Source of the DNA: a virus | Reading direction: 5' to 3' (one strand) | DNA: 64,000 bases | IMG/VR virus record: IMGVR_UViG_3300027747_003534 | Coordinates: 32,001-96,000 of that record | Part shown: positions 33,401 to 51,198 of the stretch, in pieces | Layout of the letters: every line of letters starts with the position of its first letter | How positions within the stretch are numbered: position 1 is the stretch's first letter | Program-made: the position numbers and the translations under genes | The notes under the pieces: generated by a model | The model's database searches: none | Told to the model about the DNA's origin: nothing | Seen by the model: the letters and a program-made list of their open reading frames with translations, nothing else

Positions 33401-36400
33401 CCAGATGTTTATAACAAGTTATGGCGTGGGCAGTATAAAGACTATTACGATGTGCCTGATCCAACTCTTGCTCGACACGTTGATATGTATAACACCCTGA
33501 TACCTTCCGGCGAAACTGGTCGTTTATCAAAGCCATCCGCAGATCAAGAGAAGGAGTATAGAAATAGATTAAAAGATATTAGTAAAAATCCAATTTATGC
33601 TAATAAAGGAATGCTTATCCCTTACCAACCCAGAGGAACTGATACTGTTCCTGCAATGTTGACTCCCGGAGAGTTTGTTATCAATAGAGCGGCCACCCAA
33701 CAAAATTTACCACTGCTACATGCTATTAATAGTGGAGCTAAAACTTATAGTAGTGGTGGAATTGTATATGCTGCTAATGGAGATTTGATAGGATCATCCA
33801 ATAGCTCCTCAAATAGTGATCTATCTAAAATCTCAGCAGTAGCATCTTTAGTTCCTAAAATCTTAAGTAAAGTAAAAGATTCTGATAAGATTAAATCTAA
33901 TCTCGATACTATTAATAATAACGTTATATTAAATCATAAACAAGGCAAAATATTAAACGATAAAATAAGTTTATTAAATAATAAAATTGATATGGGATTA
34001 GGAGATATTCAAGAAAATATTCCTACTGATAATTATTTGTCAAATATTCCTAATTATTTTTCAAATAATTTATCAAGAAGTTCATCATATGGATTGAATC
34101 ATGGGGGAATAGTTTATGCTGCGAATGGGAAGTTAGTAAATTATCAACCACAAGGAACAGATACTATTCCAGCAATGTTGACCCCAGGAGAATTCGTAGT
34201 TAATGCTCGGGCTACTAGTGCAAATCTTCCATTATTACAGACCATAAATAAGAGCAAGGGAGGCATTGCTTATTTACAACAAGGAGGTCTTCCTAATAAT
34301 AGAGATTTTTTAGAAAATAATAGAGATTTACAAAGATTTACAAGTCGTATTGGATTAAAAGCAGCTAGAGATATCATAAATCATAAAGATATGTATGATA
34401 TTTTTAATAATAATATGTTTCATGAAGACTTGGACGTTGATGCAAAAATAGTTGAGAGTAAGAGATATATCGACAGTCATATAACAGATAGGTCAAAAAT
34501 AGCTGCTAGAGAGCTAGTTAAACAAAGAATAAGGCAGAGACAGCGTTATTTAGACCAAATATTTACAGCTAATCGTTTTACCCTTGATGAAATAAGTTTT
34601 GGCGGGAGAGATCGTGAGCTTAGGTATACATTATTTGGAATAGAACTAAAAGAGATTTTAACTACACAATGGCGCAATGCTCAAGGGGAAAACTATAGGT
34701 TACAAGACGTTATCGAAGGAATCAACCCATCTCGCCCACCTTCTTTTTTTAATAATGGCGGAGTAGTTTATGCTCAAGATGGATTTGATCCATCAAAACA
34801 AAGAATGCCTACTTTATTCGATTTGCCCCAAGATTTTAGAAAACCACATAAACCATATAAGCCAGATGTTAAGCCAAAACCAGGATTAGCTGGAGCATCA
34901 ATAGGAGCACCAGAAAAAGTTAGTGCTACCACACAGAGAGCTATCGATAGTAAGGTTTGGGAACAGACACCTCAAGACATTCCCTATTGGTTTGGAACAA
35001 GAAAAGAATCAGAAACTGAAAGACAACAAAGAGTAATTGAGTACGGCTTGAACGAAAATCTACCTGAATGGTATAAAAATGCTGGAATGGCTTGGCAAAT
35101 GGTCGAAAATATTGCGCAAGGTTGGGCGGGTACCGGAGGAGCAGGTCATCAGCAGCCTAGATTAATGCAACGAGTAAAAGGATCACGAACACCACTAACT
35201 GGACAAAGACCGAACATTCCTGTTCCTGGTTATGGAGCTTCTAACCCTAATACTCTTAATGATTTAACAACATCAAATGTTACTAGACCAATGGTTAGGA
35301 CTGGAGATACTTTAGATAATGCTACTACTGATGCTGGTTTAAGACGCAGAGTCTCGTCGCCAAAAGATGCTCTTCAGAATGCGTCTACAAACAGTATGTC
35401 TAGACCTAAGCCAATATCAAATCAGGATAGTTTTGGTAACGAATCCACTAATGCTGGATCAAACCCAAAGCTACAATTAGCTCCTTTATCATCTAGTTTG
35501 GGAGGAACCACATCAAACTCCAATGTGTCACAGCCTGCTGTACCATCTAGTTCCTCATCCAAAGGTATTCTTGGTAAAATTTTAGAGTATATCAAAAAAC
35601 CTTTTGTAAAGCAACAAACTGATGAAGATCCACGGATGCCAGTATTTATGACAAAGAAACCAGATTCTGTAACTGAAGGAAATATACAGAAATTACTTTC
35701 AGATAGGCAGGTAGGATATACTGGCAGTTCGTTATTAGCAGGTAGAAATGCAAAACCCGGAATGTTAAAAGAAGTAGACAAATATCTGCGAGATGCTGGT
35801 ATAGATCCATCTTCTATGAAATTTGTTGGATCTGGTAGAGAATCGATGGTTTTTGATGCTGGTAATGGAAAAGTATTTAAACTTGGATATACACAAAATC
35901 GTGATGTTCAAAATATTTTAAAGTCTCCTGATTTAGAAGCTTTGTCTTTACCTTCCGATGTTCCAGGCGTAGCAGGATATACAGGAAGACAAAATATAGG
36001 ACCATATACTGTAGGCTTTCAACAAAGAACTCAAACGCTTGATCCAGAAGCTCAAAAACAATTTCAAACCGGCAATGTCGGTGCTGAAATGCAAAAATAT
36101 TTACGAGAAAAGGGGTACGAATGGAAAGACGCTCATCAGGGTAATGTTGGATACGCTACAGATCCGCGGTTTGGTATACCAACACCTATGGGATCATTAC
36201 AGGTTATTGATGGAGATGTTAGACCAATACAGGCGAAACAAAAAGGAGGCATGATATATGCTTCACAAGGAACACTAGTCAACTATCAACCTCGTGGTAC
36301 CGATACAGTGCCAGCGATGCTGACTCCGGGAGAATTTGTTGTTAATGCTCAAGCAACAAGACAAAATCTACCACTATTACAAAGCATCAATAAAAGCAAA

Positions 36401-38806
36401 GGAGGGGTAATTTATTCTGCTAATGGAGGTTTAGTAGGATTACTAAGACGAAAAAATGTTAATAGGATGGAAAACAAAGCACAAAGTACTAATGAAAGCA
36501 ATTCTTGGATAGGTGTTAATGGTGATGGGAAGCCTATGGATAAATTTGGCATGCCTATAGATAATTTAATGGATATTTATCCTTCTGATATTATGTTGGT
36601 TAATGCTCAGTCTAGGGAAAAAGCTTTGGAAGATATCCAAGCAAATACTAACTTTGATAAGGTAAAAGATACAGTACAAAAAGCCTCAGTCTTATGGCGA
36701 AAACAAAAATTAAACTTAGATGAAAATAATAATCGCAAAAGTGATAGTGATATTGTCTTAGACGAGCTAATATATCAAATAGCTTTTGAACCTAAAAGAT
36801 TTGATAAAAATAGCTATAGTTCAGATGCCGATGATACCGTTCTTGCGAAAGCAAAAAAGATAATGGAGGAAATCAATGGAACTGGAGGAGCAGTGCCTCC
36901 CGGAGCTGTTCCAAATGCTAATTTGCAGCTAACCAACACACAACTCTTACAAACTCAGAGAGTTAGTGATAGAATTTGGGAAAGAACAAGTTATTTAAAA
37001 CAAATTGTAAATAATACACAAAATGCGATAGATGTCTTAGGCCATAATCAAGCTAATAACGAAAAAAGAAATATTTTTGATGGAACAACTGTAGACGGAA
37101 CATCACAGTTTGACCCAGCAGCCATTGGAATATCTAATACGACAAATAAGCAAGGGACACAAGTCTTACAATCTCAAAATGATTGGGCAAAAAAAGAATT
37201 AGATTATATAAAAGCTGTTCGTGAGGAGATTATGACTCTCTCAACTCCAGAACAAAGAGCTAATTTAGCTCAAATGCCTAGACCGCCAGAAGTATTATAT
37301 GATGAGACAACACCTATCCCAATGAGATTTAATAGAGGTGGCGTTGTTTATGCTCAAGATGGATTTGATGCATCAAAGCTGCCTATTAATAAAAATAAAG
37401 GTGGTATAATTTATGCTTCACAAGGAACACTAGTAAACTATCAGCCTCGCGGCACCGATACTGTTCCTGCTATGCTAACACCAGGAGAATTTGTTGTTAA
37501 TGCTAAGGCTACGTCTAAAAATTTATCATTACTACAATCTATAAATAATGGAGTCCAGGGATATTCTAATGGAGGAGTGATTGATCCTATCTATAGGCCA
37601 AGGGGTGGATATACCCCACCAAGACCACCAAAACAAACATTAGAACAAAGACAACAAGCATACCAAGATCGTAGAGCAGCTGAAAAAACTGCTCGTGAAG
37701 ATAGAGCAACAGCTAGAAAAAATAAAACTACTTCATATGATCAAATGTTAAACGCTAGGGAAGAGGCTTACAGAGCCAACGTAGACGCTAGGGCAGATAA
37801 TAATAGATCTCCATTAGTAAAAATCTTCGAGGAACTAGAAAAACAAGTAAATGCTAATCCAGATAAATTTGAACTAGTTATGCCTGGCTCTGTTAGATCA
37901 GCTCTTGATGAGGATAAAGATGCGAAAGCAAAATCAGAATTCTATGAACAGCATTTTATGTCTTTGTCTCCAGAAGATGTATATAAGGCCGCTAAGGAGA
38001 TGTACTTAAAAGATCAAAGACAATTTAAATATTTAGAAGGTATTTATAATAGATCTAAACAAGCATTATTTCAATTTAGTAGATATCCTGCAATAGGAGG
38101 TAGAATAGTTGGCACAAGTGGTAAAACTGCCTTAGCAATACTTTCCAAGCAAGTTGAAGCAGCACATGCTCAGGGCTTAGTATTAGATAATGCTTGGAAA
38201 ATTTTAGGTCAAAAACATCCAGAATTTTTAGCCCAAAATAGCAATCGTCAAAATGCTGCTGGCCATGCCTCTGGAGGAATAATTTATGCTAATAATGGAA
38301 TGCTAATTCCTTATCAACCAAGGGGTAGTGATACTGTCCCCGCCATGTTAACGCCCGGAGAGTTTGTAGTCAATAAACAGGCAGCTCAAAATAATTTAGA
38401 TTTATTACAACAAATTAATAGTAAGAAATATAATCAAGGAGGCCATGTAGTCTATAAAGAAGCTGGAGGGCCAATACAACTTAAAAAACCAATATATAGA
38501 GCTAATGGGGGCATGACCGATGAAACTTCTGGAGGAGGCGGTGGTGTATCTAATAATAAAGATATGGGCCTAAATTTTGATGGATTAAGTCAGTTTACAG
38601 CAACATTTGGCAAGTTTATTCAACAACTAAATAGCCTAAAATTACCAGAAGTTATTAATATTCAAGGAAATCATAAAGTTGATGTTGTCATTAACGGAGC
38701 CGGAGCATTACAAGGTATGCAAGAAGGTATTAGAAACATGATTGTGGGAGAAGTTAATAAAGCCATGAGTAGCATAAGCAAACAAACAGATGGAGCAATA
38801 GCATGA
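15422..38806 (+). CDS. Giant tape-measure protein / cargo polyprotein (7794 aa)
   Basis: TP901-type TMP core near the N-terminus (FIDFDLQMTRISQVTG...LAQAGL...ETIATGLRTIFTRI); synteny tube-chaperones-TMP-baseplate; 11 DTVPAMLTPGEFV-type modules; embedded enzyme motifs. Confidence 0.9.
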   Translation: MSKGFNLTAEINLRGPSNIRTVVADIRRQIGSVSADITPVVTRQSVRNVASVIRSQLSNIICDVKIKANTSSLRSIGSDIRRQLSGVSANINVRANQSSIRTMAADIRRQLGSINANVNVRFNTTAVTTYSNNLRGLNANLNQIITSATNATGAINALAAAMRSASAAGSAINNTAINVGNVSRAANNTRNSITLASNEMVEFGRQSGLAFRRFSAITTVTSVIYGLTNAVSQGVKSFIDFDLQMTRISQVTGDSRNKLADVANTITDLSTKLGVSSNELTTTTVTLAQAGLTAKDTATALKALALSALAPSFDDMNQTVEGSIALMRQFGIGANQLEMALGSVNAVSAKFAVEASDIITAIQRTGGVFAAASRGVSTGTEALNEFIAVFTSIRATTRESAETIATGLRTIFTRIQRAGTIEALQEFGVTLTDLEGKFVGPYIAVQRLSEGLSRLDPRDLKFSQIVEELGGFRQIGKVLPLIQQFATAQDALKVAQQGQGSLATDAAKGQLALAIQIQKVREEFLALIRSIGDTSSFQNIVKVGLDLASALIKVADATKGVLPLLTLFAAFKGITAATQYIGGFSQGIRGNGGGARRANEGGRIYAFASGGLVPGYGNGDTVSAKLTPGEFVMSKPAAQSIGVGNLHSLNRSRGGSIFPKNYYQGGVAALKSLSPGESGNRISDYIDYYENETSKTSKQKTGRKNKLNRQSPKMLRGFQLKDNVNSDIERRVIGESEIKEAVANNANFRRYINSRAAKDKSREFYAAQGVAFEEFLFQHILEGKQYEKAPKNNYPLDFIPKTPGLPPVEAKFTYEQVPDAFILNKRLRYNLLRRNNEKISPLTRKQKPDNIQLGPTIVYEMGPGLKNKIFTPNSSESQKRGREERAQKSLLKIDKLGLERNNGGSIQKFGIGGSTDAISTYKATSMKLNRSLMLGTPLTKEEQKNVKDLKKQTTDKLPKQLYSGIGENRLNLIKNQVGDKLPKSVGKSFTLPGFLSTSLDSSIAMEFARQGLLSILTNPKKKGINTNKRVSTDYDLEKEFILPPNSKFKILSAKEERSSARPGSSLMRSKASLNVQQLASGGSIQRFMAGEMVRRTKKERFKKITESDAAKLTASQIITGLTTGQTGPVRVEGMDVGMMRTILGKRNTTPDIQRKKDEILKAYTRRINGEVDQRLGITNQKQAAGLLFGIAGLYGSPFKPTDMVVGDKGELKNITTVQVMGGVPRKKLMDKAGIGIDDLDAYGKDFRKSVKKGAKRLLVSDILSQLGLGKALYADFDKTLVFGADNLPDLQSFNNKRQVGRQLLSEKARLSTLGQKLRDLLLVKPQLSPYVNVLTARPPSTVGLLQAFLKRQNLNIPRSQFTGVGGNNLNESAIAKLKAAELPPGSVFVDDNGKNTKEAELKSKSLKAKGEAGIKVFRYKSARNPLDQPGEDTAAGLAFQESLRGLLSDKRAMAAFAETGGKSIDFPLGLGKRAALFGLKPNIPTDAKRTLNGPSTAKDNITNYLKVRGYNSGGIIQKFETGGATDSLRQYQLRSKDLHSAVISNKPDKTKSNQIKDLDSSMIDSLPKILYSGFKENRRKIIDQDIDPNKDYKSQLMNKTFSFPSFLSTSINYDSAKRFAGSNGGVLHIRPTGKGANVLERTGNKGKSALYDMEAEYLLPRNSRFKINRVLDTTGPLGWRSDWGAPNFLEAEVKSFKNGGNIRRFADAGLVPAPKLIQRGGFKYSLEDIIKAGFTEAQFMKQIPAPGGYGEQWQIGGYGEGSIPMPPSLQPYKAPPSVVQDRVDLARSNVQNRMADAVRRDGRTLRDYEVSSDQKAFKKMRGYAIGGSTQDTVPALVSNGEAFVPPETAKNIGYDKLREMNQADRNGMRSFAGGGISLFKGPGSGTSDSIGPVGLPVGGFVIRAAATKALGLSKGGAVQRFAFGGSPRAVPNISGMSDARALSVVGVTDNVTGQLENLATVLQELGVRSGDSARIIQSGIQATYQQAIRATEADIRRARLAGASAEQISQAENQLADIRRQAQQDIQTRRTLGGLSGNQLQSIESNAQEERDRIRTNTRNRLAARGMSQEDINTRLQENAGAIDRQAYSRASSRAGVNLRANGLTGDDAQRFVRQSMGDPRILRQMDDQLRQQLRSSTAYTTASRTQQRQMSQSVEEEIRTRKDIVNKLARQRGQQAPGGDQRGNFGGMLGLSFGLQGIGSLLAQQINASASSSNASTAGAIQGGVTGLATGGMLVGGLQDMLGSRLSPAVSKLLGGFGLLATLAASVGQAFIEARNAAIEFEKNFQQKKLETAISDSQQLFEKLNTNIKNVDIQRSLASKLAEAGEAAKAGIEANNKLAKAFWVNLFDAFGSADQGAASQRSEILDKKGIMAYFRSTDLFGGGDKGRSKEYQSLIPEKARENSKSFAETSKLTTDLIGAKIQSGSSVEDIFKDPAWKKQAEVIARANAAVEQEILSIKNNANISDVEKEARINNIIAINAEQTIRQQASVIERQQQLKSLDNTINVYTRSLERMFQNMEQSIGRASFSLEQMSKDIDLASDSLQGQAKVGNIALTAINALQNPRAYSDQTVSNSRNVAAESFGIRSPEMVSLLGVGEKIESTVMSTINKSVNKNPGITEEALGSIVGRDVKEALANLSLPPDLVEKLSGEVGNVLKDFKKSGDEKLDYTQLSEKLGQLNKVVDSSRRAQEVAIKALEHYQNALNVYTQNINKTIDLQISANQRLRKATDIVADSELSLAKTLGKNISLENARTMVNSKVSAKTGGATNPNDIFDSINKLENTRVVQQAEQRSAGERGLSGQADFIKFTKNLSDTNIGLRENIDALKYLADNTDIAASAMEKIQEAQQKSSGRASFIEKLVTSTPEELNGLSSAFQRLQNNANGQINTINRSTGAQRAYYEALQNGASMMEAMKAAQAAFVNERKETLGALNDILPFLGNNQQAGNIKANVLESMLQESGMGVSPVFQQILNTLRNPELDPATQAAIAEYREGNNLQARANSLLAQLDSNLARDIANQSAKALANALSDVKINFEGSELKDLVNLVQQINGKLPLGAAPAAGKASGGVIYAAAGRAIDFKSQGTDTVPAMLTPGEFVVNRAATQSHLPLLNAINSNKYSSGGAVRYYSSGGYVSQNFKEEYKKNSDDLVQSKEKYIDPRSAAFREVKSVYAGPDKFVRGAQPKTIMAPVATASSGRASLDSIKSEDGINNLYLGEAPAILVEKNAHNQDVFNYGVINRPRAHLLDPLGSVVDKPFDTKNITKNKFIEYKNSFNQKLINSDLDSSTIVSSMPAVNDIKDIPESLISDQFYSPNVISNLPVGMIVTRNKTLGALSWNKESTEHAKVLKIYRLASDYADVSVVSNEDQGYYKIKSDLKMSDSSAQDRIKILTGDNSWITEKDNIKNIIKTQELNLKDLKQTQTFTSVDPDPTNPVFNNLFKAEDPNLSNLRQKLEILYSGAEGISLTGNELNFFNPSALSEDKENNITLLHVLNSKYKPILDKSLNSKQQADKIKTTFPKLMVGGAGLNNLPDADYKWARGYEFGIYDVADMGKMKTFPWVANEDPSVISQDIQAAIDNQAEQLKTKYGISTKPVSDFGSYKLKLPNPIGDVDLPYHMQYTEYTGPQIATDPSKADPNGFNLGANLNKALLITPNNKNPLSPYSQFKKYAQSTAYVDKILTGDEIFDKSHIELDKIPDFTTLAKGNIDRNQRDQLKQNLKGVQYSIDLDSLIDHTNHPILKNIPLFEDSPPNKQSYVFNIGEYLSTVADKVFTDRDNAAIKSVGEIDDKGQLADDTIKDNKLPDAVKNLARLSLGVFGRKRVPGLPGNWLYNSIRGIIQKPFKNSGVAQQAAGYTSGIFNNFGGYLSKLAPMTRNPNIYQQLKELFTLGSGAAMAFTGLASGDTRMIGQFQKLNLNAEDLFRSLGGASLFGRISSTALSGDYKAILGQQLEGAKIKTVGANGTLSLVSADKAIPEKYNDLVNIAFNPYNEFPSKDTRKDIIEKLTTDMINATDQVGMSYFDPNTQRFLYGNMTSLYNWYGGNGAWEGQDYFFDKNVDPDNAKRTQQVIDSFSGQDGQDAYTKGNIAHTTLGFASRYGSLPTDKWFVQRREAGLNAEARAVTDPNASKDPLRFATGGVVYAQEGQHINFQPRGTDTVPAMLTPGEFVINKAATQSNLPLLHAINNGGAKAYSNGGPVYLARGGLTVKEHFKPLDTNIFDSLDIDKNSILEDNEMPKNSILRYMADYRKGADNKLTKKELEEYNTDYDSHIDNYLSLDAQKKYNNINPQKQKLNGSFQLNNGDRISQIQFIQTYEAANKIGKQKSKWGARNTLEENFYSGDPNYPFSQATYDLEAHNNKLRLGVGPFNSKAFGYGVAQQIIPALLSLAGGGVGFALTAPFTPAAQIGGTIGGAIVGDQIGQVINEMIYNGFPSSWKKDINKKIEKYPESYEIGQWTGFAADIAMGGFADDFITKSASGLVKKKLTRQAIDEAIKSGSSLNKLIQVGNDTIPIEKTVDDLAESTGKEAASNSKKVNKSKSKKSEKAENKAKIDSLLKNMKIIGDEYNSKIGEAYNKGILRKYDSLAAGDIASAIQKTGDVRNQAAKFHFDDLLKSSPDYVDPSLLTKLTDNSPIYIAAQSQAKETFSRLGIDVSDDFGKLDANKMFDEYFNKEYDILSKNPLNEAAARQKQSILDEIAQKYDIDPSDFKRLKDKLDDIAVRPRRPGFKTIYGLTKTAIMIARMIKDRKIEQKKAQPYDMPEAQTVPAVADKAEAAASPNKDEPKTAETTPPKPQVVKPKDVGNLPKYWDELSYKEYLDTLIKSGKNPEIPDKKLFTTSAIYTKGKRTTALDSRDTTGIVGGNRVSLPKDPKEKAKLDAQINNIGQKLYTSSEIAYDSYSRLVTGKNKNIPLGDIIKGDLIDNYRQSIESMHELMSITNLDKFGTINFKLDKPLPGQSSNKKLGDIIDTLKAVRKGYKNDIVPSLVNEDAEPKEGETPEDANKRTQRSVVIDDSILDLFGRKFAPITETRPDAVPDNGKKFTGREVSDTARENDKFPFRTRITGAKGINSQYKSAYSYYRRILGEYNYHKNIGKLDRYIKGYKTTATVARTLASGGIVYASTGALIPYAPKGTDTVPAMLTPGEFVVNARSTAKNLPLLKSINNGGVQGLSSGGVAYLSRGGQPNDVSYGRFELSDDQAQFSHRSINPLTGNRTPENGDDLDKKYRINSGIYDYLTLRTTMPDWLTSLNNLSFDDNSMRFFSDASFYKTLTQIREANDLRSLQSLSYNFVKGFKYRDYNKDNRLTGFDFTSHLSKTDGILGLIDPDVGGDLQPKDLVKWTTTKAKLQAKSSAARVVKNLTPDLENLRDILSDQKPMGKNNNPEFKNRNHYESPAALLNSTVSEWKKQRQQQKNRVNLRQEELTESKDGRQITMPPHLNMNFDEINVADVVKDILAKKKTPYTENLVSWLENNVKTVSEKVADLVPVPKASEEWDAADAERPRVILDLIKNGPEAFMTGLKGETKEGKSKSLIYSLLAQSARIQGINNLIKARSLFSGSETSVRKGETNFTGDMARRDRNLVYKDQTRTPENFEERENNVSRSGQVKTLTPADNSAIPGSGPNGEQTSDERRETSNRARMANGRGNSAIRGIELWDTNRDGKISFEEWNQFRPEKEPELQRFFGASTFDALMGAYSSALKGLGLRDKNATDNFKPRTLKDYFKNIDKDNTGYIEQHEFSDMVGKPLEYLDIETDREAKELGDTLGTQRDPRGAQKLAYDKIDRTTISSVKNLLKQDFKELYPVSFSKASHFSEREVIQPQIDALRKITGVSELDKINKRTILANIGSSLNKDNSDWGLSPKVEENLGNVMVKIKQDSLLFPGVVNKAYTQGLATPQDLLHNPDINYEKTLKRSGIPEDIFKTIWQDYKPVSKFDNPNSKDSLDKIYKLNNELNSQEIGEDKERTTAAALSQKSNAKKRSAKKELTKNTLIEQLLVKAKYFEPDVYNKLWRGQYKDYYDVPDPTLARHVDMYNTLIPSGETGRLSKPSADQEKEYRNRLKDISKNPIYANKGMLIPYQPRGTDTVPAMLTPGEFVINRAATQQNLPLLHAINSGAKTYSSGGIVYAANGDLIGSSNSSSNSDLSKISAVASLVPKILSKVKDSDKIKSNLDTINNNVILNHKQGKILNDKISLLNNKIDMGLGDIQENIPTDNYLSNIPNYFSNNLSRSSSYGLNHGGIVYAANGKLVNYQPQGTDTIPAMLTPGEFVVNARATSANLPLLQTINKSKGGIAYLQQGGLPNNRDFLENNRDLQRFTSRIGLKAARDIINHKDMYDIFNNNMFHEDLDVDAKIVESKRYIDSHITDRSKIAARELVKQRIRQRQRYLDQIFTANRFTLDEISFGGRDRELRYTLFGIELKEILTTQWRNAQGENYRLQDVIEGINPSRPPSFFNNGGVVYAQDGFDPSKQRMPTLFDLPQDFRKPHKPYKPDVKPKPGLAGASIGAPEKVSATTQRAIDSKVWEQTPQDIPYWFGTRKESETERQQRVIEYGLNENLPEWYKNAGMAWQMVENIAQGWAGTGGAGHQQPRLMQRVKGSRTPLTGQRPNIPVPGYGASNPNTLNDLTTSNVTRPMVRTGDTLDNATTDAGLRRRVSSPKDALQNASTNSMSRPKPISNQDSFGNESTNAGSNPKLQLAPLSSSLGGTTSNSNVSQPAVPSSSSSKGILGKILEYIKKPFVKQQTDEDPRMPVFMTKKPDSVTEGNIQKLLSDRQVGYTGSSLLAGRNAKPGMLKEVDKYLRDAGIDPSSMKFVGSGRESMVFDAGNGKVFKLGYTQNRDVQNILKSPDLEALSLPSDVPGVAGYTGRQNIGPYTVGFQQRTQTLDPEAQKQFQTGNVGAEMQKYLREKGYEWKDAHQGNVGYATDPRFGIPTPMGSLQVIDGDVRPIQAKQKGGMIYASQGTLVNYQPRGTDTVPAMLTPGEFVVNAQATRQNLPLLQSINKSKGGVIYSANGGLVGLLRRKNVNRMENKAQSTNESNSWIGVNGDGKPMDKFGMPIDNLMDIYPSDIMLVNAQSREKALEDIQANTNFDKVKDTVQKASVLWRKQKLNLDENNNRKSDSDIVLDELIYQIAFEPKRFDKNSYSSDADDTVLAKAKKIMEEINGTGGAVPPGAVPNANLQLTNTQLLQTQRVSDRIWERTSYLKQIVNNTQNAIDVLGHNQANNEKRNIFDGTTVDGTSQFDPAAIGISNTTNKQGTQVLQSQNDWAKKELDYIKAVREEIMTLSTPEQRANLAQMPRPPEVLYDETTPIPMRFNRGGVVYAQDGFDASKLPINKNKGGIIYASQGTLVNYQPRGTDTVPAMLTPGEFVVNAKATSKNLSLLQSINNGVQGYSNGGVIDPIYRPRGGYTPPRPPKQTLEQRQQAYQDRRAAEKTAREDRATARKNKTTSYDQMLNAREEAYRANVDARADNNRSPLVKIFEELEKQVNANPDKFELVMPGSVRSALDEDKDAKAKSEFYEQHFMSLSPEDVYKAAKEMYLKDQRQFKYLEGIYNRSKQALFQFSRYPAIGGRIVGTSGKTALAILSKQVEAAHAQGLVLDNAWKILGQKHPEFLAQNSNRQNAAGHASGGIIYANNGMLIPYQPRGSDTVPAMLTPGEFVVNKQAAQNNLDLLQQINSKKYNQGGHVVYKEAGGPIQLKKPIYRANGGMTDETSGGGGGVSNNKDMGLNFDGLSQFTATFGKFIQQLNSLKLPEVINIQGNHKVDVVINGAGALQGMQEGIRNMIVGEVNKAMSSISKQTDGAIA
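15473..15790 (+). repeat. About four 27-aa repeats at the TMP N-terminus
   Basis: IRTVVADIRRQIGSV, VRNVASVIRSQLSNI, LRSIGSDIRRQLSGV, IRTMAADIRRQLGSI. Confidence 0.8.
17720..18010 (+). other. PD-(D/E)xK nuclease-like domain within TMP
   Basis: GVAFEE (17726), YPLDF (17801), VEAK (17843). Confidence 0.6.
18161..18650 (+). other. ADP-ribosyltransferase-like domain 1 within TMP (VIP2/Alt-like)
   Basis: LYSG (18302), FLSTS (18401), EKEFILPPNSKFKI (18530). Confidence 0.8.
19235..19680 (+). other. HAD-superfamily phosphatase domain within TMP
   Basis: Motif I DFDKT (19244), motif II LTAR (19421), a Lys, motif IV FVDD..N (19583). Confidence 0.75.
19715..19945 (+). other. Second PD-(D/E)xK nuclease-like domain within TMP
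   Basis: GLAFQE (19727), IDF (19811), TDAK (19874). Confidence 0.5.
19991..20505 (+). other. ADP-ribosyltransferase-like domain 2 within TMP
   Basis: LYSG (20129), FLSTS (20237), EAEYLLPRNSRFKI (20381). Confidence 0.8.
32363..32615 (+). other. EF-hand pair within TMP
   Basis: Canonical 12-residue loops DTNRDGKISFEE (32363) and DKDNTGYIEQHE (32573). Confidence 0.7.
35750..36225 (+). other. Minimal protein-kinase-like domain within TMP
   Basis: Gly loop GSGRES (35828), VFK (Lys at 35879), catalytic loop DAHQGN (36128), IDG (36206). Confidence 0.7.
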
Positions 38807-41800
38807 GCTATAATATTACAGATAATTTGGTTATTGGTAGCGGCATTAATCCTGATATAACATTATCACAAACATCGGGAATTAGCACAGTTTTTAATGC
38901 TAATAAGCAAAATATTGATTTTCAAATATCTTCTACTGGTAATTCTAGTCTCACTTATGATGCTTCTACCGGAAGACTGGGAATTAATACTGGTTTGCCA
39001 GACGCTGTCTTACACATAGTTACTCCATGCTCAAAAGATGGCCTAATTATAGAGAGCATTACTAACTGTCCTACCGGAGTCACTTTGTTACTGGTACACA
39101 ATCCACAAACACAGCCAGTAAGTGGCAGTTATCCATCTATTATAAATCTTGCTGGTAGAGATACTAATTATAATGAAATATATTATGGTCAAATATTATC
39201 TAAAATCTTAGACCCAAATACAGGATCAACAAGTGGGGAAATTATTTTTACAGTTGATCAAACTGGTATAAATAAACCTGTTTTTGTAGCTAATTTAGCT
39301 AATGTTACTTTAGGGGGTAATAATTCTGTTTCTGGTTTTTCTTATAATATTGTTGGTAACTATAATGAATTAAGTGGAACTTTATATAATAATATTGGGT
39401 CTCTCAATACTGGTAAAATTAATAGTGGAATAATTATTGGCAATAGTAATATTGTAAACGGAGACGGAGTATTTCTATTTGCTAATAATTCAGTATTTTC
39501 TGGAGTTTCTGGTATAAACGTAGGAAACTCAATTGTTACCAGTGGATCTAATAATACATTATTAGGTAATTTTGTTAATATCACAGGACTGCATAATATT
39601 TTATTGGGTAGTAATAATAATGCTAGTATTTCATCAACCGTTGGCTTGGCTCAAGGGCTAACCGCTTCTGGAATCTCAGGAATAGTTTTGGGCTCTAATG
39701 CTTCTAATATTGGCGATTTTAATATTTATATAGGGAACGACACTTCAGTATCTGGCAGTAATAATAATCTCATAGGTTCATTAGTATATTTAACTGGTAA
39801 TAATAATCTTTCTTATGGTAATCAAAATATAGTTAGCGGAAATAATCTAATATGTATTGGGTCTTATCAAACAGCATCTAATATTAATAGCGGAATTTTT
39901 ATAGGCAATAGAATAGGTTCCAACGATGCTGTTAGATCCATGATTATAGGTATCGGCAACAATAATAATCCTAATCAACAAGGACTGTCTGATAGCATAT
40001 TACTTGGTATTAATAATACCATAAATAGTGGAGGGGTACCAGACAAGCTTTTATTAGTTGGTCAAAATAATATTATAAAAGACATAACTAATTCTTTATT
40101 GGTTGGAAACCAGAACAATGCTAGTGGTTCAATAAATAATACAGTATTCCTTGGCAATACTAATTCAGCAGGATCTAATAGTAATAATAATATTATTATA
40201 GGTATTCTCAACAATCAAACTGGCGCATATATAAATACTGCTGGTAATATTAGTGGTATTGCTAAGGTTATGAATATTCCTCTTAATAACAGTGTTATTG
40301 CTGGTATTAATAATGCTCAATATGGTGGATTATCTAATAATATAGTTGGAAATAAAAACTCAGTATCCGGCTCGAACGACACTGTAATAGGCTCATTCAA
40401 TGATCTGCGTCATTCTTCAAAATCCTATAGTATAGGTAATTCTAACTACATTATTGGAGATAATATTGGTGCAGCAGGGAGCAATTCATTAATCGTTGGT
40501 AAAGACTCTCTTGTTTTTAATAACTCAGATAAACGTATGGATGTTTTTGGTAGTGGTAATATAGTTTTGGGTTATAATCAATTAGCAACTAGCGGGTTGG
40601 TAGTAGGTACCAATAATAAAATATATGGACTAAATAATACTATTTATGGAAGAAATAATACTCTTGGATCTATTGCTCATCCTTTTCTGATGAATGGTTT
40701 ATCTTCATTCAGCATATCTATTCCGTCATTAAATGTTTCTAATAAATATACTGTGGGCGATTTAGCTCTAATTTCTATCCAAAGTCCAGCTTCTACTGGC
40801 AATACATTTATAAGAGAAATATTAAATATTACAGAGAACACTATAGATAATACTACTGTCGTTCAGTTTAGCACTTCTATTGGTGTTGATGCTTCTAATG
40901 GTTATTATTCTATTAATTCTAATTTTGATGATAATAATAGTCCAAATAATACTGTTGTTAGTGGCTTGATTATGCCATACATGGTTGGTGGAGGTGCTGG
41001 AGGTCCAGAACTTAATCCATCATATGGTTGTAATAATATTATAATAGGATCAAATAATAAATATATATATAGTAGTGGTACAGTGATTGGCTTTAACAAT
41101 AATGTATCTGGTGTTAAAAATGTTGTTGTTGGTTATGGTATTAGCGGAATAACAGATAATACATTATATATTGGTACAAATAATTTAAATAAAGTTATTT
41201 TAGATAATGATTTAATAGTATTTAATTCTGGTAAAGTTCAAAGTAATTTTATTGTTAAATCAACAGATAATAATACTTCAATCGTTAATATTGATCTGAA
41301 TAATAATAGATTTGGAATTAATACCGATAGACCAACAGCTGATTTATCTGTAAGTGGATTAACTAGCACTAGTACAATTAGAGTAGGTTTTTCTTCACCT
41401 GATCAGTATGTTTTAACTTCTAATGTAAATGGCTATGGAACATGGCAATTACCAGTAAGGTTATCAGGATTAGATACTGGCCTAATGGTTAAAATTAATA
41501 ATAAAGTCGGTAGTGGTATTTCTAATATTTATTTTGATCCTAATGGTGAATCATTAAATTTTAATCTAGATAATAATAATGGATTAATAATAAATCCAAC
41601 AGGGATTTTTGTTAATGATGGTGGCAATCTTTATACAATGAGAATCAGAGGGAGCGGTGGTGATGATTTTGCTAAAGTATTATTTAATACTAATCTTGGT
41701 AATAATAGAATAGATTTCTTTAATGTAAGTGGAAATTCTGGAGTCTTTAATAATTTAAGCTTAGCTAGTGGTTTGAGTTTGCCAATAAGTCTTACTGGTA

Positions 41801-43191
41801 CATTCCTTTATGTGAATTCTAGTGGTAAACTATTGTCCTATCCTTCTAGAGCATGCTCTGTACTATATGCCAGTAGTAATTCTTGGGCTACTGGAGATAC
41901 TTCTTTCAGATGGTTTAATAATCAATCAACCTTAGCCCTAGGAGCTACTGGCATTGTTAGTTATGATCTATTAGCAACTAATACTAATGATACAAATTAT
42001 AACATATTATTAAGTTCTAATAATCAAATTGATACAATATTTAATAATCGAGGATTAGGTAATAAATTTTCAGTTATTAATTCTGGAGCACTAAATACCA
42101 GAAGAGGGTTACATATTAGCCCCGCTAGTGGCCAAGTAGCTATTAATGTTATTCCAGATACTTTTAATAGTGTTATTAATCAGGCTCATTTATATGTTGA
42201 AGGTAAAACATGGACTAATAGTTTAAGAATAGGTCCAGGTATTACAACATCTGGCTTATATCTAAGAGTAGATAATGCTGGTAATGTGATCCCTAGCACT
42301 TTAGATCTAACAACACAATTTAGTGGTAATTATCCTATTACTACCACTTATACATCACTTGGTCAAAATAATGCTTTTAGAGTTGATATAGGTTTACAAA
42401 ATGTTGATAGAGCAGGTAATTCTTTGGGAGTTAATAACGATGGTCAGTCTTTAATATGGGATGGAGCCAAATGGAACTTAAATAAAGGCATTATAGCTCC
42501 ACAAAGCTCATGGTTATCTAATGATGACAAAACATTAAAGGGTTTGCAGTTTGGTTATAAGTCCAAGGTAAATTATACGTACCATACTCATGCATTTGCT
42601 GCTGGTTCTTTTTTACATGGATCTAATTTATATGATGGATCATCACAATTTACTCAACACTATCTAAGATGTCGAACTCCTGCTTCTGGAGGAAACATTG
42701 TTGCATTAACAACTAATTTTGCAAAAGACAGCGTGACTACTGAAAATCAGTACAATACTATAAGTCTTTCTAATGTGAATGGATATAATTATGATAATGT
42801 TTGGACATATAATATTTTTGTGTCCGTATTATGGCAAAATGGAACTAATAGCAGTAATCCTGCTGTGGGTGATAGACAAGCTGCTGGTATGAGTATTCAA
42901 GGATGTATTTATAGATCAGCTGATGGAACGATATTTACAAAACTTGGTCAAGAAAAAATAAATATATTTGCTACAGGAGTTGGTGTGGTTGGAATGCCTG
43001 CGGGAATGGGAGTTGGAACATATTTAGATAATGATGGTCAAACTAATGTTCCTAGATTAAGCATACGAGCAACAGGAGTTGATGGAAAAACAGCCCTATG
43101 GACAGCAACTGCACAAATTCACCAATTAAATCATCCGGCAGGGTCAGTTGACGGATCTCCATTCGGATATAATTTATATGGTAGTGTATAA
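38803..43191 (+). CDS. Tail fibre/spike with YadA-head-like beta-roll repeats
   Basis: Many G.xN..SG..N.IIG..N repeats; RLGINT..P..LHI fibre motifs; ATGA overlap with the TMP stop. Confidence 0.7.
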   Translation: MSYNITDNLVIGSGINPDITLSQTSGISTVFNANKQNIDFQISSTGNSSLTYDASTGRLGINTGLPDAVLHIVTPCSKDGLIIESITNCPTGVTLLLVHNPQTQPVSGSYPSIINLAGRDTNYNEIYYGQILSKILDPNTGSTSGEIIFTVDQTGINKPVFVANLANVTLGGNNSVSGFSYNIVGNYNELSGTLYNNIGSLNTGKINSGIIIGNSNIVNGDGVFLFANNSVFSGVSGINVGNSIVTSGSNNTLLGNFVNITGLHNILLGSNNNASISSTVGLAQGLTASGISGIVLGSNASNIGDFNIYIGNDTSVSGSNNNLIGSLVYLTGNNNLSYGNQNIVSGNNLICIGSYQTASNINSGIFIGNRIGSNDAVRSMIIGIGNNNNPNQQGLSDSILLGINNTINSGGVPDKLLLVGQNNIIKDITNSLLVGNQNNASGSINNTVFLGNTNSAGSNSNNNIIIGILNNQTGAYINTAGNISGIAKVMNIPLNNSVIAGINNAQYGGLSNNIVGNKNSVSGSNDTVIGSFNDLRHSSKSYSIGNSNYIIGDNIGAAGSNSLIVGKDSLVFNNSDKRMDVFGSGNIVLGYNQLATSGLVVGTNNKIYGLNNTIYGRNNTLGSIAHPFLMNGLSSFSISIPSLNVSNKYTVGDLALISIQSPASTGNTFIREILNITENTIDNTTVVQFSTSIGVDASNGYYSINSNFDDNNSPNNTVVSGLIMPYMVGGGAGGPELNPSYGCNNIIIGSNNKYIYSSGTVIGFNNNVSGVKNVVVGYGISGITDNTLYIGTNNLNKVILDNDLIVFNSGKVQSNFIVKSTDNNTSIVNIDLNNNRFGINTDRPTADLSVSGLTSTSTIRVGFSSPDQYVLTSNVNGYGTWQLPVRLSGLDTGLMVKINNKVGSGISNIYFDPNGESLNFNLDNNNGLIINPTGIFVNDGGNLYTMRIRGSGGDDFAKVLFNTNLGNNRIDFFNVSGNSGVFNNLSLASGLSLPISLTGTFLYVNSSGKLLSYPSRACSVLYASSNSWATGDTSFRWFNNQSTLALGATGIVSYDLLATNTNDTNYNILLSSNNQIDTIFNNRGLGNKFSVINSGALNTRRGLHISPASGQVAINVIPDTFNSVINQAHLYVEGKTWTNSLRIGPGITTSGLYLRVDNAGNVIPSTLDLTTQFSGNYPITTTYTSLGQNNAFRVDIGLQNVDRAGNSLGVNNDGQSLIWDGAKWNLNKGIIAPQSSWLSNDDKTLKGLQFGYKSKVNYTYHTHAFAAGSFLHGSNLYDGSSQFTQHYLRCRTPASGGNIVALTTNFAKDSVTTENQYNTISLSNVNGYNYDNVWTYNIFVSVLWQNGTNSSNPAVGDRQAAGMSIQGCIYRSADGTIFTKLGQEKINIFATGVGVVGMPAGMGVGTYLDNDGQTNVPRLSIRATGVDGKTALWTATAQIHQLNHPAGSVDGSPFGYNLYGSV

Positions 43192-43194
43192 TAA
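43183..43194 (+). promoter_or_regulatory. Candidate late-promoter motif
   Basis: AGTGTATAATAA, 35 bp upstream of the ATG at 43218. Confidence 0.35.
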
Positions 43195-43217
43195 GTATTA
43201 GTTAGTAAGGACAAATA

Positions 43218-44657
43218 ATGGGATCATTATCAATAGGACCTAGCTTAAAATTAACACCAATTCCATTGGTCACAATAAGCAATGAAATACAAAGGGACGG
43301 AGCAGGAAAACCCATAGGGTGCACAACCAATATTACATTGAAGGGAGAAATATATCCCTCCGGAATACAATTTGGAGGAAATGATAATAATAATCCAACA
43401 CAGCAGTATACAGATGCATTATTAAACACCGCTCTACAAGCAGCAACTGGCATAAGACAAAAATTAAATAATTTATTTAGAGATTCCACGCCTATAGATC
43501 TAACACTGCCTAATTCATATGGCTTATTCACTAATTGTTATATTAAAAAATATTCTGTAGACGAAAATGAAAATAGATGGGTTAATACTATCCCATATAG
43601 CATAGAACTAATCTGCGAAAGAAATGAGCCCTCTGGAAATTTATATTTAGTTAATAGTACCAAAGACTCTTGGACTATAGAATCACTAGAAGAATATTGG
43701 AAAACAAATGCCGAAGGAGCTGGAACTAAGGGTCCTCTGTATAGAATTACTCATTCTGTAGGAGCTGTCGGAAAGTATTATCCAGGAACAACTCCGTTGC
43801 AAAATGCTAAGCAGTGGGTTAATAGTGGAAACTTAAATTTTGATGGTAATATAAATATAAATAATAATTTAGTGTTATTTAATCATATTAGAAAAGTAAA
43901 TATTAATAAATTTGAGGGTTCTTATGGTTTTGATGACACTTGGTTAGCTGTTGATAATTTAGAAGATATTTCAAAACATTCTATAGAAAATTTTGAAGTA
44001 GAAATTAGTATTGATGAATCTAAAAATATTGTAGCAAATGTTAAGGGGTCGGTTCAGGGAATAGAATTGTTTAGTAAAAATAATACTGGAATTCCAGGTT
44101 ATGATAAACCTGCTACTGATTCAACAAATTTTATTCCTACTACTGGGAGATTTGCTAATGCTTTAAAAACATATATTGATGTTAGAAATCAAATAAATAG
44201 TAGAGCTAGCGCTTTAGCTGGAGCAACATTAAATCCTAAACCACTGTCTATAGTAGAAGGATTTGATTCGGCTGCTGGATTGATAACATATAGCTTTTCT
44301 TATGATAGTAGACCAAAAACTATAGTGCCAGAAGCAATCAGCGAAAATATAACCGTAGATACTAACTATGGACAAAAAAAATTATATGCTTCTATTTTTG
44401 TTCTAGGACGAAAATTAGGTCCAATATTACAAGAAATTAACTCAAATGGAACATATAGTTCTACTACTGTCAATTATGAATGCGTTTTACCATCTTCAGG
44501 AATAGCAAATCTTAAATTTCCAATAACAATTTATAATAGTATACCTATTAAAGATTTTGCTCCTGACAATTATTTATATGTACAAAATAGCGGATTTTCT
44601 TGGAATATGAACGAAAATAGATTATCTATGACAATAGAGTATGTTCACAATGAGTAA
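43218..44657 (+). CDS. Putative distal-tail/baseplate hub protein (paralog A)
   Basis: Downstream of the TMP; beta-rich; colinear motifs shared with the next gene; RBS AAGGA. Confidence 0.55.
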   Translation: MGSLSIGPSLKLTPIPLVTISNEIQRDGAGKPIGCTTNITLKGEIYPSGIQFGGNDNNNPTQQYTDALLNTALQAATGIRQKLNNLFRDSTPIDLTLPNSYGLFTNCYIKKYSVDENENRWVNTIPYSIELICERNEPSGNLYLVNSTKDSWTIESLEEYWKTNAEGAGTKGPLYRITHSVGAVGKYYPGTTPLQNAKQWVNSGNLNFDGNININNNLVLFNHIRKVNINKFEGSYGFDDTWLAVDNLEDISKHSIENFEVEISIDESKNIVANVKGSVQGIELFSKNNTGIPGYDKPATDSTNFIPTTGRFANALKTYIDVRNQINSRASALAGATLNPKPLSIVEGFDSAAGLITYSFSYDSRPKTIVPEAISENITVDTNYGQKKLYASIFVLGRKLGPILQEINSNGTYSSTTVNYECVLPSSGIANLKFPITIYNSIPIKDFAPDNYLYVQNSGFSWNMNENRLSMTIEYVHNE

Positions 44658-46170
44658 TATAACAATATCTTTTAATAATTTATCTTTAGTCCCTACTCCA
44701 GCAGTTAGTATTAATACAGAATATTTAACTGTTGGTAGTGGTATTTCTAAAATACATACAATTAATCTAAATGGTTTATTATTTTGTAGTGGAATAACTG
44801 GTTTAATATCTGGCATAGAGACACCTAATGCTACCGGCATTTTAAATATTAATAGTAGTAGCTATGCTGTTAAAACCCTTAGTTCTAGTTTAGAACCAAC
44901 TAATGATAATTGGAGTACCACAATTCGTTATTCCATGAGTTTTGAAGGAGTAAGAACAGATGAAAATCCAGCTTTTAATACTTCAACAAATTGGCTGGTA
45001 AGTAAGATACAGGATGATTGGTCAATTGATCCATTAGATGAAAATTTTAAATATATTACAGAGCCAAATTTTGATACAAAATTATATACTCAACATCTAG
45101 CCAGCGATCTTTATTCTTTACCAGACTATCCCTTTTTTAAAATTACCAGAACCATAGGAGCAGTTGGAAGATATGAAACAAATAATCCTAATGTATTAAA
45201 TAATGCAAAAAATTGGGTTGATAATTATATAACTCAAAGTGATTCTACTCCTAGCTCATTTTTAACAAATTTTAGTAACATATATAATCATGTTAGAAAT
45301 ATATCTAAAAGCGTTACAGAGGGCTCGTATATCATTACTGATACTTGGGTAGCTAGTCGTGGTGGTGAAAACTATATACAAACATTAAATATACAGAGCT
45401 CATTAGACAGAGACGCCCTTAGAACAGTTACTATTGATGGAGAAATTAAAGGATTATCCAACGCCAATAAAACCTGGACAGACCCTGGTGCTAGTGGACT
45501 TATTATTCCAGCAGTTGCCGACGCGGCTGTCAAATATAATAATGCTCTTGCTAGATATGATGCAATATCAAATACTTTTACTGGTATGGCTACTAGCATG
45601 TTAGTTGAGACCTCTAGAAATACTAGTAATATGGTATATGATAATAATTTTAGATTTAAAACTGAATTTAATAGAAATGAGTCCAACGTAATAAATCCTA
45701 TTCCATTGTCTAGTGGAACTACTCATAATAAAACAGAAGGATCTGTAAAATTTAATATTACGTTTAATAATAGGCCAATAAATTATTTTAATGGAATATC
45801 AGAAAATATTAATGTTCAAGATTCTATTGGTATGTCAAAAATCATAACTCAACTAGTAATGTATGGTCCTCCGGTTTTGCAAGACTTGGGAACAAAAGCA
45901 TCTAATACTAGAACAATTTCTATAGATGCTAAATTTGCAAACGACCCTACTGTACAAAGTACTATAACTTATTATAATACATTAAAAACTAAAAAAGATA
46001 GCGTTAGGAGTTTAGTAACCAGTCTTGATCCTGGAAATGTATTAAAAAATATATCATCTCCTAACTTAGAAATAAAAAGCTTTTTAAAGGATAGTAGTGC
46101 CAAGATAGATGTGGCTAATAATTCTGTATCATGTAATGCTACTTATGAATGGGTCTTTAAAGGAAAATAA
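44650..46170 (+). CDS. Putative distal-tail/baseplate hub protein (paralog B)
   Basis: Shares GAVG.Y, NAK.WV, NH.R, EGSY...DTW.A, NP.PLS and SENI.V with paralog A; start is 44650 or 44641. Confidence 0.55.
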   Translation: MSNITISFNNLSLVPTPAVSINTEYLTVGSGISKIHTINLNGLLFCSGITGLISGIETPNATGILNINSSSYAVKTLSSSLEPTNDNWSTTIRYSMSFEGVRTDENPAFNTSTNWLVSKIQDDWSIDPLDENFKYITEPNFDTKLYTQHLASDLYSLPDYPFFKITRTIGAVGRYETNNPNVLNNAKNWVDNYITQSDSTPSSFLTNFSNIYNHVRNISKSVTEGSYIITDTWVASRGGENYIQTLNIQSSLDRDALRTVTIDGEIKGLSNANKTWTDPGASGLIIPAVADAAVKYNNALARYDAISNTFTGMATSMLVETSRNTSNMVYDNNFRFKTEFNRNESNVINPIPLSSGTTHNKTEGSVKFNITFNNRPINYFNGISENINVQDSIGMSKIITQLVMYGPPVLQDLGTKASNTRTISIDAKFANDPTVQSTITYYNTLKTKKDSVRSLVTSLDPGNVLKNISSPNLEIKSFLKDSSAKIDVANNSVSCNATYEWVFKGK

Positions 46171-46172
46171 TA

Positions 46173-51191: not shown

Positions 51192-51198
51192 GTTATCA

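Follow-up and report, generated by a model that had tools for sequence, protein, structure and literature searches.

A candidate minimal kinase as the cargo of one slot in a giant tape measure protein of a phage tail

Tail tape measure proteins (TMPs) occupy the tail tube of phages and exit the virion ahead of the DNA. Some of them have embedded enzymes, for instance the peptidoglycan-hydrolase motifs of mycobacteriophage TMPs and the C-terminal peptidase of T5 pb2. Truncated kinases within the polyvalent proteins of phages and conjugative elements were predicted by Iyer, Burroughs, Anand, de Souza and Aravind in 2017 (PMC5512222). Their features are: (i) the loss of the C-terminal subdomain, (ii) a Glu before strand 2, (iii) a Gln in the last N-lobe strand and (iv) a His-Asp insert; their activity was only predicted in that work (PMC5512222). 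The T7 gp0.7 kinase (T7K) is hyperpromiscuous and disarms host defences; its DFG-like motif, DPV, has no Phe, which has been proposed to lock the active state (PMC13645617). Here, we analyse positions 34748-36235 (+ strand) of a DNA stretch of 64,000 nucleotides (the window, i.e. positions 32,001 to 96,000 of the IMG/VR virus record IMGVR_UViG_3300027747_003534). This segment is one filled slot of a giant predicted TMP, and its cargo ends with a domain for which a protein-kinase-like (PKL) fold is predicted, whose catalytic residues are conserved and whose C-lobe is almost entirely missing.

Predicted fold and catalytic residues of the cargo domain

The domain covers 225 residues (35561-36235, aa 6714-6938 of the carrier), stopping 8 residues past the DFG-equivalent and 5 before the GG of the next junction module. 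An AlphaFold2 model of these residues, computed on alignment A1 (nine sequences), has a mean predicted local distance difference test score (pLDDT) of 79.3 and a predicted template modelling score of 0.77. Behind five N-terminal helices come three strands (87-91, 95-101 and 104-110), a short helix (114-119), further strands within 140-159 and a pair of helices within 162-183; four more strands, all short, surround the catalytic loop and IDG. The PKL topology is thereby present in the models: a five-stranded N-lobe sheet with its helix, alphaD, alphaE, the catalytic loop and the metal-binding loop. In a second model (m7069fe171454), made from the whole 496-aa segment, the domain appears again with pLDDT 85-95, while the first 270 residues are unstructured. 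The initial annotation had placed the kinase in about 150 aa; its motifs do lie there, but the folded domain is larger, with about 225 aa made of an 85-aa helical extension and a 140-aa core. The parts of the domain are as follows; the coordinates of all motifs were checked by translation.

35561-35815, + strand: N-terminal helical extension of the kinase, domain residues 1-85 (helices 26-31, 37-47, 53-60 and 68-78 in the model)
35816-36235, + strand: minimal kinase core (pLDDT 83-96 over most of it; fold matches cover model residues ~70-225)
35828-35845, + strand: Gly-rich loop GSGRES (G92, E94 and S95 invariant in 9/9 sequences; aligned with the Gly-loop of TkArkI in a profile search)
35873-35881, + strand: VFK with the beta3 lysine K107 (invariant in 9/9 sequences; kept in 16/17 copies)
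36020-36022, + strand: Q154, Gln of the last N-lobe strand (invariant in alignment A1)
36128-36145, + strand: catalytic loop DAHQGN with D190 and N195 (17/17 copies; aligned with DAHPGN of the ABC1 kinase 5yjz and HPGN of the homologue P0014)
36206-36214, + strand: IDG, the DFG-equivalent, with the metal-binding Asp D217 (Asp in 17/17 copies; aligned with IDfG of 5yjz)

The core contains the N-lobe sheet, a short alphaC-like helix, alphaD, alphaE, the catalytic loop and the DFG-equivalent, and lacks both the activation loop and the alphaF-alphaI helices of the C-lobe. As had been noticed from the sequence, there is almost no C-lobe: both models end with one short strand past IDG, and the junction module starts 8 residues on. 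The missing C-lobe is a hallmark of truncated phage kinases and is compatible with membership of the PKL superfamily. The N-terminal extension is common to the stand-alone homologues; in alignments with Rio1 and TkArkI, it is matched by their N-terminal helices.

In the structure searches of solved proteins, every match listed has a kinase fold. Foldseek against the Protein Data Bank (PDB) gave at least 390 matches at E<=1e-3, and those listed are all protein kinases or APH(2''). In an all-against-all fold search of 48,161 chains (VIA), all of the best 50 rows are kinase-fold proteins, headed by TkArkI (Z 7.5, 147 residues aligned), Rio1 (Z 7.5, 153 residues aligned, rmsd 3.7), ULK4, Rad53 and RIOK3; further rows include Rio2, APH, YihE, the ABC1 kinase 5yjz and OspG. 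A second-look search gave 743 chains with Z>=5, and the Z score of TkArkI is 7.5-7.8 across searches; Z differences below 1 are ties. A search of a viral structure library returned small phage kinases. The matches align model residues ~70-225 with classical kinases from beta1 to the DFG position, and with nothing beyond; we take this end point to correspond to the DFG site of Aurora A, MPS1 and similar kinases. The kinase fold proposed in the initial annotation is therefore supported by two AlphaFold2 models, three PDB fold searches and one viral-library search.

The residues on which catalysis would depend are strongly conserved. Besides those of the Gly-loop, K107 and Q154, the invariant positions of A1 are V105, G136, V137, L181, G185, W188, D190, N195, G197, D217 and G218. 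In a wider set of 17 domain copies (this one, P0004, two each in P0011 and P0006, one in P0014 and ten stand-alone proteins), D190, N195 and D217 do not vary and a single copy lacks K107, at pairwise identities of 24-40%, which argues for selection on catalysis. The domain retains the whole set for Mg-ATP binding and phosphate transfer: Gly-loop, beta3 Lys, catalytic Asp and Asn, and DFG-type Asp. The DFG-equivalent reads IDG(D/A)V, with no Phe. After IDG, nearly all stand-alone homologues (P0005-P0018, 213-262 aa) have a C-terminal tail T-x-E-E-A-I-R-A-L-R that is missing from the TMP-embedded copies; this tail might form the helix of a mini C-lobe or serve as a docking peptide.

The family to which the domain belongs is rare. 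HMMER found only 14 proteins (clusters) at E<=1e-3 among 1.84 billion representatives, including the query itself; the others are P0004, P0011, P0006 (5,055 aa), the multi-domain proteins P0013 and P0014 and eight stand-alone proteins of 213-262 aa. An HMM search against the Kinase-PolyVal, APH and RIO families had been proposed as a check of the kinase assignment: Pfam gave no match on the segment at E<=10, whether to these three, to ABC1 or to any other family, and membership of a known family is not established by profile. A PHROG search at E<=1, run on five homologues as well as on the domain and the linker part, detected no kinase, nor did NCBIfam detect a kinase domain; phmmer with the domain against PDB sequences gave nothing at E<=10. 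In tblastn searches of 50,697 phage records with the segment and two stand-alone homologues, only the junction motif was matched and the kinase was not. Related loci were sought among viral, metagenome and genome contigs, starting from alignment A3, P0012, P0019 and the domain itself, and no relative turned up; a word-indexed protein search for longer carriers found none, which is weak evidence by the tool's own grading.

Weak profile matches nevertheless keep the motifs in register: the catalytic loop and IDG with 5yjz, and the N-terminal helix, Gly-loop and Lys with TkArkI. Furthermore, one distant homologue links the family to known ones. In hhalign, the match between P0014 and A1 extends through the entire core (E 7e-5), and P0014 passes the Pfam cut-offs of APH and ABC1 at the aligned catalytic segment; it is the only one to pass, the ABC1 matches of P0013 and P0015 (E 0.025-0.12) falling below the cut-off. 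As judged from these alignments, P0014 provides a sequence bridge from the kinase family to Pfam APH and ABC1. P0013 (1,214 aa) and P0014 (1,439 aa) have several APH/ABC1-like kinase repeats and a cytidylyltransferase-like domain, resemble polyvalent proteins and form the family's sole sequence link to Pfam kinase families; P0013 also carries InPase (PF18823), a Pfam family found in polyvalent proteins.

The cargo slot and its giant carrier

The segment corresponds to residues 6443-6938 of a single open reading frame (ORF) of 7,794 aa and is in frame with it. The carrier matches PhageMin_Tail (PF10145; aa 265-469, E 2.5e-21, 76.9 bits), TIGR01760 of NCBIfam (E 1.8e-23, 83.1 bits) and several PHROG tape-measure families, and ORFs upstream match PHROG tail-fibre and baseplate families. 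Nine junction modules of about 65 aa (GG-x-x-YA ... GTDTVPAMLTPGEFVV ... INxxxGG) partition it into cassettes. On this sequence evidence, we identify the ORF as a phage tail TMP made of cargo cassettes split by junction modules. Other cassettes hold an ADP-ribosyltransferase domain and EF-hands (Pfam). As a single copy, the junction motif is also seen in proteins annotated as TMPs in Nodularia phages and in other phages among the 50,697 records. The carrier and the elements that surround the kinase domain are:

15422-38806, + strand: carrier TMP (ORF list, Pfam, NCBIfam and PHROG matches, nine PGEFV junction modules)
34097-34291, + strand: upstream junction module (GGIVYA...GTDTIPAMLTPGEFVV...INKSKGG), a copy of the DNA repeat family D1
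34292-34747, + strand: opening portion of the cassette, helical in appearance (52% identity with aa 4128-4383 of P0011)
34748-34797, + strand: partial junction FNNGGVVYAQDGFD, left edge of the slot (50-nt direct repeat D2)
35012-35125, + strand: short helical segment (residues 89-126 of the 496-aa model, low confidence, pLDDT about 47-53)
35129-35560, + strand: S/T/G/P/N-rich linker of 144 aa (from composition; no predicted secondary structure, pLDDT 31-43)
36236-36436, + strand: downstream junction module (KQKGGMIYA...GTDTVPAMLTPGEFVV...INKSKGG), right edge of the slot (reference copy of D1)

The limits of the slot are given by the repeats. D2 has a second copy at 37328-37377 (50 nt, 88% DNA identity with 34748-34797), and there, 2.6 kb downstream, lies a paralogous empty slot (37328-37548) made of FNRGGVVYAQDGFD, 13 nt and then a full junction module. 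Since D2 and D1 are nearly adjacent at this paralogous site (13 nt) and 1,438 nt apart at the kinase, 34748-36235 delimits one filled slot. The empty slot shows what such a site looks like when it has no kinase module, and it provides homology for intragenic recombination. An apparent joint 34797->36242 in the sequencing runs was considered as a kinase-less population variant and rejected, being explained by the empty slot 37328-37391 mapping back.

Several features reported in the initial annotation were recovered here. Its motifs FNNGG (starting at 34748), GSGRES, VFK, DAHQGN, IDG and KQKGG (starting at 36236) are all in frame where it had located them, and the S/T/P/N-rich linker is real: S23, T15, G14, P14 and N14 make up 56% of the 144 residues, 38 of which are Ser or Thr. 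The linker is probably disordered according to the model. The short helix ahead of it is predicted too, but at low confidence. The label of toxin-like cassette finds no support, 34292-34747 having neither a Pfam or PHROG match nor a toxin signature.

The same kind of module is found in other TMPs. One is P0004, a partial TMP of 1,401 aa (MEX0595858.1; E 2.8e-39, 40% identity) from a metagenome-assembled genome labelled Candidatus Paceibacterota. The distal linker (from aa 6624) plus kinase aligns with its aa 449-765, this linker-plus-kinase unit showing 36% identity over 320 aa. The corresponding slot of P0004 (within aa 260-1043) holds a glycine-zipper membrane-like segment, then linker and kinase, and then a domain of about 280 aa that comes after the kinase with no junction module in between. 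The label of P0004, which belongs to the candidate phyla radiation, may reflect the binning of a phage contig, and its ~280-aa domain has only a faint DUF3990 match. In P0011, a TP901-type TMP of 4,808 aa on a 199-kb contig, the corresponding slot is filled by a glycine-zipper segment, and two tandem kinase copies lie elsewhere in the protein (aa 860-1310), bounded by three GG-x-VQRF-x-x-GG motifs; P0006 also has kinase copies. The closest relative of P0011, L004, is 92% identical to it over the first 572 residues, and 200 unrelated aa replace residues 573-1303. The kinase domain was looked for in three related giant TMPs (L003-L005) and none has it. Because the contents of slots vary and these TMPs do without the domain, the kinase is an optional, exchangeable module.

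The source record is a virus of 161.5 kb, estimated complete by CheckV, and its genome has one copy of the kinase domain. The freshwater metagenome run X1, which is its probable source, contains the whole segment; no RNA run is listed as containing it. Two other runs (X2 and X3), of sparse coverage, have junction pieces and short contigs matching 34290-34621 with no differences, and almost nothing over the kinase part. Downstream of the TMP gene, five large ORFs follow one another (38803-57999; 1,462, 479, 509, 1,672 and 2,278 aa); a PHROG search at E<=1e-3 gave no match for them, and their products presumably represent an undescribed kind of distal tail or baseplate protein. An antisense ORF inside the giant ORF (35422-35781, - strand, 119 aa) is most likely spurious.

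Possible roles of the domain

The reading towards which we lean is that the slot carries a tethered minimal kinase that phosphorylates host proteins after delivery. The cargo would consist of a flexible S/T/P/N-rich tether and a minimal protein-kinase-like domain. Since the substrate-docking C-lobe and the activation loop are lost, the model suggests a kinase that is probably constitutively active and poorly selective. Because the TMP exits ahead of the DNA, such a kinase would reach the host before phage gene expression, and host proteins could be phosphorylated for takeover or counter-defence, in a manner akin to that of T7 gp0.7 and of the proposed polyvalent kinases. The tether may allow the domain to travel unfolded and to refold, or it may be cut at the junction modules. 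A more specific version, in which the TMP acts as a protein-injection vehicle so that an active kinase devoid of C-lobe enters the cytoplasm ahead of the genome and hits defence or housekeeping proteins before transcription, seems to us possible yet doubtful.

Several points weigh against a delivered kinase. The domain goes undetected by the profiles of Pfam, PHROGs and NCBIfam, and the profiles built on A1 and A2 match solved kinases only at non-significant values (E>=0.04). The fold Z scores are at most 8.0, which is middling by the tool's calibration, so that the case for the fold lies in the uniformity of the lists and in where the alignments stop; moreover, the alignments behind the models are shallow (9-12 sequences). 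At the putative alphaC helix (114-119), no acidic residue is conserved in register and no conserved alphaC Glu was found, though, along the lines implied by Iyer et al., the Glu of the Gly-loop may stand in for it. With its C-lobe missing, the enzyme may depend on a partner, as OspG and NleH do. Since a kinase needs ATP, cytoplasmic entry would be required, and TMP cargo may not get there. Finally, a folded domain of 25 kDa may not fit the lumen of the tail tube and might have to travel unfolded.

Some of these points bear on whether the domain is a kinase at all. Chance motifs combined with a model artefact of the shallow alignment would account for the lack of any significant sequence match to a known kinase, but the motifs are in canonical order and spacing and are invariant among homologues, two models agree, the hundreds of fold matches are, among those listed, exclusively kinase-fold proteins, and P0014 bridges the sequence to Pfam APH and ABC1; the absence of a kinase fold is thus highly improbable. 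A pseudokinase, i.e. an ATP-binding or structural filler serving as spacer, docking or length-adding element with no catalysis, would fit the lack of a conserved alphaC Glu and of a C-lobe, the loss of the His of D-x-H in some stand-alone members and the dispensability of cargo modules in relatives. The invariance of D190, N195 and D217 in divergent copies, together with the near-invariance of the Lys, would be unexpected for a filler, and we regard this explanation as quite improbable.

If the domain is active, its target may be other than host proteins. An active phosphotransferase might act on a non-protein substrate (RNA, nucleotides or signalling molecules, small antibiotic-like compounds as for APH, or an envelope precursor) and serve entry or counter-defence. 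TkArkI, an RNA kinase (tRNA 2'-kinase), is the joint best neighbour (Z 7.5-7.8) and also a weak profile match, small-molecule kinases of the APH(2''), YihE and ABC1/UbiB types rank beside protein kinases, the catalytic loop D-x-H-x-G-N is of APH/ABC1 type, and the usual peptide-binding platform is gone with the C-lobe. However, Rio1, RIOK3 and Rio2, which are protein kinases or ATPases, score equally, Iyer et al. placed the truncated polyvalent kinases closer to protein kinases (PMC5512222), and the neighbours of the domain in the ESM Atlas are viral clusters, with 'protein kinase domain-containing' as the automatic name of one among the top. We consider a non-protein substrate unlikely. The kinase might also act in the producing cell, late in infection, by phosphorylating its own linker or tail and assembly proteins, for instance for cargo solubility or assembly timing. 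As the product of a late structural gene, the protein first sits in an ATP-rich cytoplasm during assembly, and the linker with its many Ser and Thr lies directly upstream and, for its distal part, accompanies the kinase in P0004. Yet the stand-alone homologues (213-262 aa) have no such linker, related TMPs assemble without the kinase, which is therefore not required for assembly, and the ADP-ribosyltransferase cargo of the same protein points to host-directed functions; this role appears improbable.

Were the delivered, host-directed kinase confirmed, no protein kinase brought in by the virion would have been shown before it in a bacteriophage, and the counter-defence by T7 kinase would have a pre-made counterpart: T7K needs to be expressed first (PMC13645617), whereas a kinase built into a TMP would be there as soon as infection begins. 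The tail ruler would then double as a delivery device for ATP-dependent enzymes directed to the cytoplasm. The domain would also represent a natural minimal kinase, with a core of about 140 aa. Since the family escapes Pfam, PHROGs and NCBIfam, such kinases are missed in routine phage annotation.

Comparison with known kinases and tail-borne enzymes

Among described structures, the best neighbours of the model are RIO kinases (Rio1 1zp9 and Rio2 1tqi of A. fulgidus) and ArkI (TkArkI 7vnx), with Z 7.5 over 147-153 residues. They share with it N-terminal helices before the N-lobe, a small size and the lack of an activation loop; a Gly-loop of G-x-G-x-E-S type is also present in Rio2. However, RIO and ArkI kinases keep a compact C-lobe after the metal-binding loop, where the TMP kinase has nothing, and the catalytic loop D-x-H-x-G-N is not of RIO type. 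Assignment to the RIO family was rejected, with no Pfam match on the protein, RIO2 at E 1.2 in the PDB profile search and Z scores tied with those of other families; membership of ABC1/UbiB (PF03109) and APH (PF01636) was likewise rejected, neither having a Pfam match on the protein.

The type III effectors OspG (4q5h) and NleH1 (4lrj) are also delivered minimal kinases; they measure about 170 aa, little of which lies beyond the DFG-like motif. OspG aligns with the model over 127/169 residues (Z 5.9) and NleH1 is a weak profile match (E 0.33). They differ from the TMP kinase in being bacterial effectors for eukaryotic cells, in the requirement of OspG for an E2~ubiquitin partner and in the lack of significant sequence similarity.

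T7 gp0.7 is likewise a small phage enzyme of kinase fold with no regulatory elements and no Phe in its DFG-like motif. By analogy, the Phe-less IDG might lock the active state here as well. Membership of the gp0.7 family was rejected: the hhalign probability is 0.5% (E 0.11) and only the piece with the Gly-loop and Lys is aligned. T7K has the DPV motif and a C-terminal host-shut-off/DNA-binding domain, whereas the TMP kinase has IDG(D/A)V followed only by a junction module. Since there is no sequence relationship, no DPV and no C-terminal domain, the analogy to T7 gp0.7 drawn in the initial annotation holds for function only. In addition, T7K is produced once entry has taken place, by expression of an early gene, whereas the present kinase lies inside a late structural protein and would arrive ready-made.

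The closest likeness is to the kinases of polyvalent proteins, as the initial annotation had suggested. In both, the C-terminal subdomain is gone and the residues for ATP binding and phosphotransfer are intact; the Glu before strand 2 is E94 here (GxGxES, strand 95-101) and the Gln of the last N-lobe strand is Q154 (strand 149-155). Three of the four published features are thus present in the TMP domain. For the fourth, the stand-alone homologues lack 9-10 aa that the domain and P0004 have inserted between H192 and D217, and the match of this insert to that of Iyer et al. is ambiguous. In both cases, the kinase is one module among many in a giant phage protein and also occurs as a stand-alone protein, with co-delivery with DNA being predicted. 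As for the family profile, PF18762 (27-bit cut-off) gave no match on the segment at E<=10, on ten homologues at E<=1 or on the six-frame translation of the genome at E<=10; because it matches none of them, we do not file the domain as a PF18762 member. A PF18762 cluster appears at rank 28 of the ESM Atlas neighbours (score 0.92), which is a lead and not a test of membership. The likeness to polyvalent kinases therefore stands for the three features and not for the profile. The carrier is a tail TMP here and, in the published cases, virion-packaged polyvalent proteins such as MuF or N4-like RNA polymerase fusions, and the range differs too, with freshwater phage contigs here and Verrucomicrobia-Chlamydia and Bacteroidetes prophages there (PMC5512222). 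On sequence grounds, we view the TMP kinase as a sister or highly divergent family of the polyvalent kinases, with the same design and a new carrier. To our knowledge, kinase activity of the polyvalent proteins has not been shown experimentally either.

Enzymes embedded in TMPs are modules inside the tail-length ruler that leave the virion at ejection, as this domain would. The known ones have the cell wall as their target and work without ATP, outside the cytoplasm, whereas a kinase implies a cytoplasmic target. A stripped kinase as a module of a giant phage protein had already been predicted in 2017 (PMC5512222), which makes the present finding less surprising; what is new here is a sequence family that Pfam, PHROGs and NCBIfam do not see, its location inside a TMP and its slot-wise insertion.

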